From NCBI RefSeq assembly GCF_003334815.1, contig NZ_QOWO01000022.1: DNA of 64,000 nucleotides; one strand, written 5' to 3'. This document shows positions 24,001 to 27,000 of the stretch, piece after piece. Position 1 is the stretch's first letter. Each line of letters opens with the position of its first letter. Source of the DNA: Escherichia coli (lineage in GTDB: Bacteria; Pseudomonadota; Gammaproteobacteria; Enterobacterales; Enterobacteriaceae). A program made the position numbers.

Positions 24001-27000
24001 CATGGCTTCGATTTCATCCCTTCCACGCTCCGGATCGCGTTCGAAAACAAAACTGATTTTGTGACCGGTGTTTTTATAGGCAGTGTTCATTCGCTCTGCC
24101 AGCGCTGTAATCAGTGATTCCAGTGTGCCGGGGGCTGTCAGGTCCGGGTTTTCATCCATTTCTTTCAGGGCACCGCTGATTTCAAAGACGGAAAGGTAAT
24201 ACCCCTGTTTTGTGGTGGCAATGTAGGGGGCTTTCAGCCAGGGGCGGCGTTCGCGGTCCTGCTGGTCCAGACCGATGACGGTGTGCAGATCACAGTAATC
24301 GGGGAAGAATGCGGAAACGGAATAACGTGACAGGGTACTGATACAGTCTTCAATGGCAAAAATAATGCGGTTGATATTCATGGCAGAGGTGGCTCCGGAA
24401 GACAAAATAAATCGCGGGCTGCAACTGTATTCAAATGGGAACGCTATGCGTGTAAGTTGTGCAGAGTGAGTATTGCTGTCAGGATGTTTTTTGCTGAGAA
24501 TAGTGTAGTTTCCCCGGCAGGGAAATTTAAAGTCATGATTTGTCCTCCAGGTTATGTGTAATGTTTTCCGTTTTTAATATGTTTCTTGGGAAATGAGGAA
24601 ATAGAGTGAAGGCTGAAAATAAAATATTAAATCTTTTTCATGCGACAACAATGAGCAGAGGTCTGCAAATAATAAAAGATGGGAAAATAAGAACTGATGC
24701 TCCTTCTGTTATATGCTGGTCGTTAGAGACGACACCAGGATGGATTTATTTATCGGATCAACTTGATAATGCGGTGCATTGGGGGAATAAAATAGCATGC
24801 CTTTCAAAAGATGAATTATTTTTCTATATTTTCAGAGTTCAGGTTCAGGAAGAAAATTGTTATCCTGATACAGATGATTTGCAATATGTGTCGTGGTTAT
24901 CTCCTGAGGAGGCAGAAAACACAGACCTGTATACATGTCTTTCTCTTTGCCATTCCTGCCGAACTGACAAAGAACTGTATACAGGTTGTGAAATATCAGA
25001 TTATGCAGTCCTTCCTGCAACAACACTGTATACTGACAATTCAGGACATCCTCAATATGATATTGTTAATACGCTTAAAAAACATATAGGCAAAGATGAG
25101 TATAATCAGTATGAATCACTTCGTCAGCGTATTGAATGGGTTTGTTTATAAGTGATCTTATTAAGATGTACAACAATAGATTTTCTTCTTTTGTTTTGTA
25201 TAAATACCGGAGGAATATAAAAGAAACGGAGACTGCAGAGACAGAGATGAAGTTGTTTTCCCCGTTTCCTTAATGAAAATTCAGTCAGGGGTGTGGCCGG
25301 ATAATTATGCCGCGCACTTAATTCCCTGTTGAACTGAAGTATTCCGGCAATATTCAGCAGTACGCCGGCCAGCCTGCCGTCATCATCCCGCAGGAAACGA
25401 CGGAGTAGCCGGTGCTCTTCTTTGGCGGTACTGTCAGTTTTTCCGGCCAGGTGTGCGTGGATGAGTGTTATAAGCGTCTCCGGGGATATGCGGTGAATTT
25501 TCATCATTCTTCTCCTGATTTTGTCGGGGGCACACCCGGATAGATAAACTGCTGGCGGCGAATGAAAAAATCACAGAAGGGCATATCCGGTAATTCCGGG
25601 AGACCGGATACGGCAATATCCATCCATGAGAGATAGTTATCGACGCTCACTGTGACGGTGATGCTTTTATGGGTACGGGATCTTTCATGAATTTCTGCAG
25701 CCAGAAAGAGCAGCCAGCCGCCGTTAAATGCCGGGTGGCGGAGAATGAACCGGGCAATTTCTTTTTCATCTCCGTCAGGCGGAATATTGTCAGTCAGCGT
25801 CCGTATAATAAAACGCCGGAATGAATCTGCAGTGAACTGATATCCGGCAGAGTGTGTATCCATTTTTGTTCCTCTGTAAGTTGAATGTGTGCCGGCAGAA
25901 TGTCATCGGTACCGGTGTGTGTCACATGACGTACTTTTTGTCAGGAAACGAATCCGGCAGCAGAATGAGCGCCACCCCGTCCATTTTCTCCCTCAACGTT
26001 TTACGCTGTGCCGGCGGCCAGCGGCGCAGTGCATCAGCAAAATCCGCCGGACGCCAGGTGCGAAATTTCTCCTCAACGGCCAGGCGGTTCTGTACCAGGG
26101 CATTCAGTACGGCCCGTCCCTGTCTGACTCGCTTACGCTCATCGCTGAAAATTTCCTTCAGTGCCCGTGCATTGAGAGCAACTACCGAGGCCGGATGCAA
26201 ATCAGGGAGCCAGACCATCACCCCCTGTGCGGCAGCGTAGCCGTTCAGGCAGTGCCAGGCGTGGCAGAAGGCACAGAGATGAAAGGGCGGGCCTTCCGGC
26301 TGCAGCAGTTCACTTTCATTTTCGCTGAGTGCATCTGTTGTGACGATTTGTGACTTTTCCACATGACGCAGGGCCAGTCGCCTGGCCGACAGGCGGGCCT
26401 GTGCCAGGGACCGCTCCGCATCCTGCAGGGTTCGGGTGTGTTTCTTTTTTTCGTCAGCATTTTCCGGTACCGGATGTTTTTTCAGGCGCATCACCCGGGT
26501 GAGGTTTTTTTCCAGCAGGACGACCGTATCCCGGCAGGTGTCAGCCATCTGCTGTAATGGCCATGAATCCTCCAGAATGAAGCGGTGAGTGACGGTCCTG
26601 CGACAGCAGGGACAGCGTCCGGGTGTTGAGAGCACTGGTGGTGGCAGCAGGGATTCACCGCTGAATACCGTGTCCGGTTGCGGGAGCGGGAAAAGCCAGC
26701 GTTCCCGGACCGGGGCGATGAGTGGCGGTGTTTTGTTCATACGTTTTTCTCTCTGTATACAGGGTGACGGCAGCCAGAATCAGTGCTGCGATGGCGGTGG
26801 AATAACATTCTGCAAACACAAACTCCTGATTATCCCGGTTGTCGCGGGCAATCACGTTGCCGTGCTCTGTTCTGAGCAGGGTGAAAGGGGGCAGCTCACA
26901 GGACATGGTCTGGTCCTCCTCATTGTGTGAAGACGGCACCGGTTTCCCGGTGCCTTTGCGGATTAACTGATTGAAACCGGAGAAAGACCGAGCGTTTTCT

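Follow-up and report, generated by a model that had tools for sequence, protein, structure and literature searches.

Between the transfer genes traT and traU in a 64,000-nucleotide stretch of Escherichia coli DNA (NCBI RefSeq assembly GCF_003334815.1, contig NZ_QOWO01000022.1; the whole stretch is called the window below) lie three open reading frames (ORFs), ORF181, ORF127 and ORF119, which together form an accessory cassette that is conserved among I-type (MPF_I) conjugative plasmids and moves horizontally. We found that ORF181 has the fold and the conserved cofactor-site residues of an ADP-ribosyltransferase (ART) and that an ORF119-like gene is its constant companion in all plasmid lineages found. 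An earlier note on this DNA had described the locus as an insertion at one spot of a conserved operon. The cassette is not a single recent insertion, because the same genes, the antisense orientation of the ART gene and the low GC content recur at different positions across lineages. Sequence comparison also indicates that all three ORFs are real genes and not chance ORFs, since each has homologues of 30-75% identity, with conserved motifs and the same arrangement, in other plasmid lineages. Our preferred, still tentative, interpretation of the cassette is a mobile toxin/immunity-type system consisting of the ART and a neutraliser, ORF119 with or without ORF127.

ORF181 encodes a small acidic cytoplasmic protein with an isoelectric point (pI) of 4.8. 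Its AlphaFold2 model (predicted local distance difference test, pLDDT, 95.1; predicted template-modelling score, pTM, 0.90) contains the split beta-sheet core by which ARTs bind nicotinamide adenine dinucleotide (NAD+). The top matches of this model in a Foldseek search of the PDB were cholera and pertussis toxins, Arr, Tpt1, MbcT and DarT, and its structural neighbours, TreX, DarT1 and ParT among them, were almost exclusively ADP-ribosyltransferases, with an identity of ORF181 to the solved ARTs of at most 18%. The first strand carries a histidine (H12) in a motif of the H-G-[ST] type, the histidine of which binds NAD+ in ARTs, and the tyrosine of the second strand (Y48) is followed about 11 residues downstream by an aromatic residue (W59), at the place of the one that stacks on nicotinamide in such enzymes. 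We take the spacing of 36 residues from histidine to tyrosine and 11 from tyrosine to the aromatic residue to be that of the His-Tyr-Tyr NAD+ site of PARP1 (H862, Y896 and Y907). ORF181 very probably belongs to the His-Tyr branch as an NAD+-binding enzyme with the ART fold.

The signature residues of ORF181 are H12 (in LFHATT), Y48 (in WIYLS), W59, D88-x-D90-D91, R119 and E123. An exhaustive profile search assembled its family as 172 representative clusters (counted at 50% identity) of stand-alone proteins of ~170-190 amino acids; the stand-alone small size of ORF181 (~180 amino acids) resembles that of Arr, DarT and Tpt1. When conservation was scored over 86 relatives, H12 was retained in 83, T14 in 84, Y48 in 85, D88 in 86, D90 in 85 and W178 in 80, and position 59 was aromatic (Y, F or W) in 77; the NAD-site residues were invariant in all plasmid homologues. 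The family motif, L-[YF]-H-[GA]-T ... G-[YFW]-[VI]-Y-L-[TS] ... [YHW]-[YFW]-G-N, shows a PARP/Tpt1 likeness in its first strand, which aligns with LFHGT of Tpt1, and a likeness to His-Tyr ARTs in the tyrosine strand with the second aromatic residue 11 positions on. When the 86 relatives were scanned singly, the Pfam PARP model was matched by 2 of them at E <= 1e-3, with a best value of 8.7e-7, and by 6 at E <= 0.1; one relative matched DUF3990 and one gave a weak match to ART-PolyVal. ORF181 itself had no match in Pfam even at E <= 10 and none in NCBIfam or PADLOC, and no curated ART model recognised it; a weak match to PHROG 13493 (unknown function) was detected. Comparison of the ART family with PDB sequence profiles yielded only a non-significant motif match to Tpt1.

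At its acidic positions the family departs from known ARTs. E123 is placed at the start of a strand in the model, and its column, the catalytic glutamate position of classical ARTs, is aspartate or glutamate in just ~60% of relatives. D88 and D90, both invariant, follow strand 3, away from the classical position, in a D-x-D-[ED] motif which, together with the near-invariant C-terminal tryptophan, is unfamiliar to us from other ART families. By analogy with Arr, D88-x-D90 might possibly provide an H-Y-D arrangement as an alternative to E123 as the catalytic acid.

ORF119 (pI 5.5) is a small, soluble alpha+beta protein with the motifs PAFNGGWLL and FCDFFIRRQQFI, and ORF127 is soluble and basic (pI 10.8). 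Both families occurred in Enterobacterales MPF_I plasmids only. Searches of Pfam, NCBIfam, PADLOC and PHROGs returned no match for either protein, their relatives had no match in Pfam, and PDB sequence-profile searches were likewise negative. The remote-homology and structure searches that the earlier note had proposed thus gave an ART fold for ORF181 and no detectable fold relatives for ORF119; its statement that the locus holds no recognisable motifs has to be withdrawn for ORF181. Alignment of the ORF119 and ORF127 families by hhalign (probability 60%, E 9e-5, N-terminal 54 columns) suggests that ORF127 may have arisen as a paralogue of ORF119 and diverged. The earlier note had also considered roles in anti-restriction or exclusion; neither ArdA/KlcA-like anti-restriction nor surface or entry exclusion is supported, the three proteins being soluble and without matches to such families. 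ORF127 variants are 60-90% identical within E. coli plasmids and diverge faster than traU (95-99% identical at the DNA level). The C-terminal tail of ORF127 occurs as KQTHSIR or as PPVNSLR, and this variation falls exactly in the nucleotides that overlap the 3' end of ORF181.

The earlier description of an AT-rich plus-strand ORF of 181 amino acids, with a GTG start and a GAGGA ribosome-binding site, convergent with two minus-strand ORFs between traT and traU, agrees with the coordinates in Table 1 and with the base composition. The GC content was 36.1% in ORF181 (25% at third codon positions), 45% in ORF127, 49% in ORF119 and 56-58% in the traT and traU flanks. The minus-strand junction of ORF119 and ORF127 reads GAATGATGAA. 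The 4-nucleotide overlap (ATGA) that had been reported for these two genes is correct if ORF127 starts at its first ATG, and shrinks to 1 nucleotide with the second ATG (MKIH...), which is the start in RefSeq and in all homologues; either start implies translational coupling of ORF119 and ORF127. The 28-nucleotide overlap of ORF181 with ORF127 at their 3' ends is an addition to the earlier description. A tra transcript must cross the entire ORF181 in antisense before reaching traU. At 100% identity, the 4-kb stretch holding the locus matches E. coli plasmids of the IncK2/Z type (MPF_I, MOBP), in whose annotation the flanks are traT and traU and the three ORFs between them are each named "hypothetical protein"; judged by its sequence, the window is an IncK2/Z (MPF_I) resistance plasmid.

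Table 1. Positions in the window of the cassette genes, their flanks and associated segments (aa, amino acids; nt, nucleotides).
Feature	Position	Strand	Length	Remarks
ORF181	24606-25151	+	181 aa	GTG start; same start in RefSeq annotation of identical plasmids
GAGGA ribosome-binding site	24596-24600	+		5 nt before the GTG of ORF181; sequence read directly
ORF127	25124-25507	-	127 aa from ATG 25507; 126 aa from ATG 25504	
ORF119	25504-25863	-	119 aa	
traT	25922-26740	-	272 aa	Core transfer gene, flank; annotation of identical plasmids and homology to R64 traT
traU	21337-24405	-	1022 aa (as ORF)	Core transfer gene, flank; annotated start 24381
Segment specific to ART-carrying plasmids	24399-25122		724 nt	Region upstream of ORF181 and most of its coding sequence
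Convergent 3'-end overlap of ORF181 and ORF127	25124-25151		28 nt	From coordinates

An Rfam scan of positions 24200-26100 detected no RNA family, and a sigma-70 promoter scan detected no convincing site directly upstream of ORF181 (6 sites in the region against 3.6 expected, none well placed). Within the ORF181 coding sequence we observed a 21-nucleotide inverted repeat (24925-24945 and 24966-24986; 86% complementary, 20-nucleotide spacer), which spans the conserved CHSCRT region.

Comparison of the traT-traU junction across plasmids, as the earlier note had suggested, demonstrated that the presence of the ORFs varies among IncB/O/K/Z plasmids. PLSDB contained 450 plasmid records with the traT and traU flanks. 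ORF119 sequence was found, at least as a remnant, in 440 records and at full length in 172, and ORF127 was full length in 228. The ORF181 segment was present at >=99% identity in 74 records, and one record held an ORF181 homologue of 72% amino-acid identity. Approximately 98 records retained both small ORFs intact in the absence of ORF181, and ORF119 remnants alone were left in approximately 210 IncB/O/K/Z plasmids. The configurations of the junction ranged from the complete trio of the window (A) through both small ORFs with no ORF181, as in pECOED (B), ORF119 truncated by ISEcp1-blaCMY-2-blc-sugE in IncK2 plasmids (C) and a 116-135-nucleotide ORF119 remnant only in Shigella-type plasmids (D) to an in-frame fusion of 94 amino acids (E).

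The homology of the window to pECOED, pSH292-2, CP027324 and CP016548 ended at ~24398 and restarted at 25123. The intervening ART segment is replaced in ART-less plasmids by an unrelated 'empty-site' allele of 157 nucleotides or shorter, and we found no convincing transposon-like ends or target duplications around it. The empty-site allele (pECOED, L003:2344-2500; also in the loci numbered L004, L005 and L006) is 97-99.6% identical among ART-less IncB/O/K/Z plasmids, lies upstream of traU and contains an imperfect palindrome of 38-45 nucleotides; it may contain an internal traU promoter or terminator. Between the window and CP016548 (L004, an IncK2 plasmid with CMY-2), identity is 99.7% in the 5' end of traU (24000-24385) and only 95.4% in the ORF127/ORF119 region (25123-25772), and this drop suggests a recombination breakpoint at the cassette.

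The flanking genes from traO to traY are collinear and homologous between the window and the IncI1 reference plasmid R64, whereas in the traR-traS-traT-traU region of R64 the traT-traU gap is 89 nucleotides and contains none of the three ORFs, in line with the earlier note's reading of the trio as an insertion; the canonical IncI1 backbone does not include it. The trio thus does not belong to the core IncI1-type transfer genes, which are present in R64 and needed for transfer. The ISEcp1-blaCMY-2-blc-sugE unit of IncK2 plasmids (L004:2882-5472) interrupts ORF119 and leaves a truncated product of 102 amino acids. This unit was placed 'between traT and traU' in a published study, in which the transfer frequency of IncK2 plasmids with ISEcp1-blaCMY-2 at that junction was 1e-5 to 1e-7 transconjugants per donor (PMC5350095). 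Because plasmids of configuration C gave transconjugants, the small ORFs are not needed for transfer, and the trio is accessory. The trio is compositionally foreign and dispensable for transfer, which supports its description as a hitch-hiking module. The traT-traU junction is a tolerated insertion point, and ISEcp1-blaCMY-2 of IncK2 plasmids landed at the same place.

Similar cassettes were observed in other plasmid lineages. In Salmonella (57% identity), in a metagenome (41%) and in another E. coli MPF_I plasmid (72-74%), the ORF181 homologue lay antisense inside a tra operon, adjoined by an ORF119 homologue and usually by an ORF127 homologue too. The ART and an ORF119-like gene occurred together in the window and in loci L008, L009-11, L013, L017, L018-21 and L022, over which the ART identity fell from 74% to 29%. 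The trio was situated between traT and traU in three lineages, and in plasmids of Enterobacter ludwigii and Serratia it lay upstream of the traT homologue, not downstream. An MPF_I plasmid of Rahnella carried the ART/ORF119-like pair in the thin-pilus (pil) operon, between a TcpQ-domain gene and pilN. The pair was also present on a metagenomic contig, whose small protein aligned with the ORF119 family (hhalign probability 94.7%, E 6e-8). The cassette therefore occupies three or four positions in tra and pil operons. The idea of a one-off insertion at traT-traU is contradicted both by these other sites in Enterobacter, Serratia and Rahnella and by MPF_I plasmids from Salmonella and metagenomes, in which the same trio stands at traT-traU with an ORF181 homologue of just 41-57% identity.

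The architecture of the cassette was preserved along with its genes. The ART gene was antisense to the host operon and the partner gene sense in every plasmid lineage found, and the GC content of the cassette was 5-25 points under that of its flanks in every lineage. The 3' ends of the ART and partner genes overlapped by 6-28 nucleotides in every lineage (6-23 nucleotides in L009, L013, L017, L018, L020 and L022) except L008, where the genes are ~355 nucleotides apart. L008 is the E. coli MPF_I plasmid with an ART of 72% identity; it also carries a PIN/PhdYeFM toxin-antitoxin pair between traW and traU and, adjoining the ART gene within the tra operon, a PLD-family nuclease gene (PIN/PhdYeFM and PLD features at L008:726-1411 and 5270-5806). 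The sites of these genes are further tolerated insertion points.

More distant relatives of the ART were found outside these plasmids. A 30%-identical relative on a 5.7-Mb Firmicute chromosome (L014:5938-7513) is located 32 nucleotides downstream of a TIR/AbiTii-domain gene, in an island that also holds AbiJ and Lit-peptidase genes, and may belong to another kind of two-gene system that uses an ART of this family. Another relative was encoded within an array of small genes on a phage-like 205-kb linear Bacillus plasmid, and others at loci with conjugative-element-type topoisomerase, RdgC and PAPS-reductase genes. PADLOC-DB v2 gave no significant match for the three cassette proteins or for 10 ART relatives.

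The toxin/immunity-like pair listed by the earlier note remains the leading interpretation. In PLSDB, both small ORFs accompany ORF181 in all 74 records that contain it, every other ART plasmid lineage has an ORF119 homologue, and decayed small ORFs (truncation, in-frame fusion or internal deletion) were found solely in ART-less plasmids; the putative neutraliser thus occurs without the putative toxin, but the toxin never without the neutraliser. We favour an ART restrained by its cognate partner or partners because of this asymmetry of occurrence, because the ARTs nearest in structure are toxins, and because some distant homologues stand in defence islands. ORF181 would be a small cytoplasmic, NAD+-using ADP-ribosyltransferase of the His-Tyr (PARP/diphtheria-toxin-like) branch, with ORF119 as its obligate small partner and ORF127 as a second, basic and possibly paralogous one. 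The partner genes, which have no obvious promoter of their own, would be carried on the tra (or pil) operon transcript, and the ART gene would have a separate promoter and be transcribed antisense to the operon, with overlapping 3' ends. The conserved antisense placement suggests that the supply of partner protein may be tied to tra/pil transcription and that read-through RNA may oppose the ART mRNA, so that operon transcription could do both. A cellular protein or nucleic acid would be the target modified by the ART, whose action ORF119, alone or together with ORF127, would neutralise or restrain. Such a toxin/immunity-type pair would bring the cassette a selfish (addiction) or defensive gain and would not be needed in DNA transfer itself.

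The proposed pair resembles DarT-DarG, ParT-ParS, MbcT-MbcA and the Rhs pairs TreX/TreTu-TriX/TriTu in the tight linkage of an ART-fold enzyme with a small cognate protein, in its location on mobile DNA and in the survival of the partner without the enzyme, but not of the enzyme without the partner. It differs from them in the second partner, ORF127, present in most lineages, and in its antisense position inside conjugation operons. Several observations weigh against a toxin and its neutraliser. Although neighbours, the genes converge, overlap at their 3' ends and are not co-transcribed, an orientation atypical of toxin-antitoxin or toxin-immunity pairs. ORF119 is unlike any known antitoxin or immunity protein, with no similarity to the macrodomain of DarG or to ParS, MbcA or Tri. 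No Pfam model matches ORF181 itself, none of the three proteins is covered by PADLOC, and E123 is a doubtful catalytic acid, as its column is acidic in so limited a share of relatives and the invariant D88 and D90 lie elsewhere. The distant Firmicutes relatives have no ORF119-like neighbour, which implies that the enzyme need not be self-toxic. The asymmetry of co-occurrence would fit a chaperone or a regulator equally, and enzymatic activity, toxicity, neutralisation by ORF119 and antisense regulation are predictions.

A chaperone or regulator is what a counter-defence or host-manipulation role would assume, which we regard as possible though rather unlikely. The ART would modify a host defence protein (compare AcrIF11) or a housekeeping protein (compare Alt and Mod of phage T4) and so aid plasmid establishment or persistence; it would be harmless to the carrier cell, and ORF119 and ORF127 would be regulators, chaperones or specificity subunits. 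The recurrence of the family on mobile elements (MPF_I plasmids, the phage-like Bacillus plasmid and the conjugative-element-type loci), together with the weak PHROG match, is in agreement with such a role, whereas a tblastn search of phage genomes detected no ART homologue. The position of the cassette also argues against it. Plasmid anti-defence genes are reported to concentrate in the leading region (PMC11541004), whereas the cassette resides in tra and pil operons; it would enter the recipient late, and it runs antisense to the operon. Counter-defence explains no better than neutralisation why the ART is strictly paired with ORF119 and why the partners decay once the ART is lost.

The same placement in transfer operons could point to a conjugation-coupled conflict system of a new kind, for which we see a small but real chance. 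The antisense ART would be an effector gated by the transfer state of the cell, and ORF119 and ORF127 a novel-fold pair of inhibitors or sensors. It could serve in abortive-infection defence against pilus-specific phages, which attack only piliated, tra-expressing cells, or as a means of attacking or excluding rival plasmids or recipients.

A direct role in conjugation appears improbable. Under this explanation an NAD+-binding ART-like protein and its small chaperone or chaperones would act on the type IVB secretion system (T4BSS) or the thin pilus, as IcmQ-IcmR of the Legionella Dot/Icm system does, or the ART would modify the transferred single-stranded DNA in a DarT-like manner; either variant would tune transfer, fertility or exclusion. 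The cassette is indeed embedded in MPF_I tra or pil operons in every plasmid lineage found, and its partners are small and fast-evolving like IcmR-type chaperones, as seen from the variants of ORF127. However, R64 and about half of the IncB/O/K/Z plasmids predicted to be conjugative lack it, and disruption of ORF119 does not abolish transfer. IcmQ has an N-terminal helical domain that binds IcmR. ORF181 has no such domain, the first ART strand of its AlphaFold2 model beginning at residue 7, and it is structurally nearer to toxins than to IcmQ. IcmQ-IcmR would also entail co-oriented genes in a T4BSS cluster, whereas ORF181 is on the opposite strand, dispensable and patchy in its distribution. 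ORF119 has no IcmR-like fold, and neither small protein resembles the adaptor fold of IcmS, IcmW or LvgA. Moreover, the family occurs outside type IV secretion contexts, including Firmicutes that lack any T4BSS. The weakest explanation, decaying passenger DNA left from an old insertion, with ORFs kept by chance or by hitch-hiking, would fit the loss of the cassette from many plasmids by deletions, fusions and insertion of an insertion sequence, and the absence of annotated function anywhere, but it is hardly credible in view of three proteins conserved at 30-75% with intact motifs and reading frames across lineages, the invariant NAD-site residues and 74 uninterrupted ORF181 copies that are all >=99.6% identical.

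A search of the available literature library on the RefSeq accessions and on ARTs in the transfer regions of IncI/IncK (I-complex) plasmids found no earlier description of the system. The enzyme class is already known; no description of the family, the novel-fold partner or the operon-antisense architecture was found there. In E. coli and Shigella, IncK, IncB/O and IncZ plasmids rank among the main vehicles for CMY-2, CTX-M and virulence genes, and approximately one in six of those in PLSDB contains an unannotated ORF181 inside its transfer operon. Once ORF181 is recognised as an ART with an obligate partner of novel fold, three proteins annotated as hypothetical become a system open to experiment. 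A plasmid-encoded ADP-ribosylating enzyme could affect plasmid stability, host fitness, phage sensitivity and competition between plasmids, and the new ART family, with its ~172 clusters, spans plasmids, conjugative elements and defence islands.

Elsewhere at this locus, a possible equivalence of TraT to DotN gained no support from a single-sequence PDB search with TraT, which returned nothing significant. Further accessory genes of the window were recognised on the minus strand, at ~5180-9271 and 14166-15752, by 99.7-99.99% identity to the annotated plasmid pEc631_1. They include a gene for an S6-family (SPATE-type) autotransporter peptidase and one for a protein with a TnsA N-terminal domain, the latter in a GC-poor accessory region with a hok-family toxin gene on one side and excA on the other.

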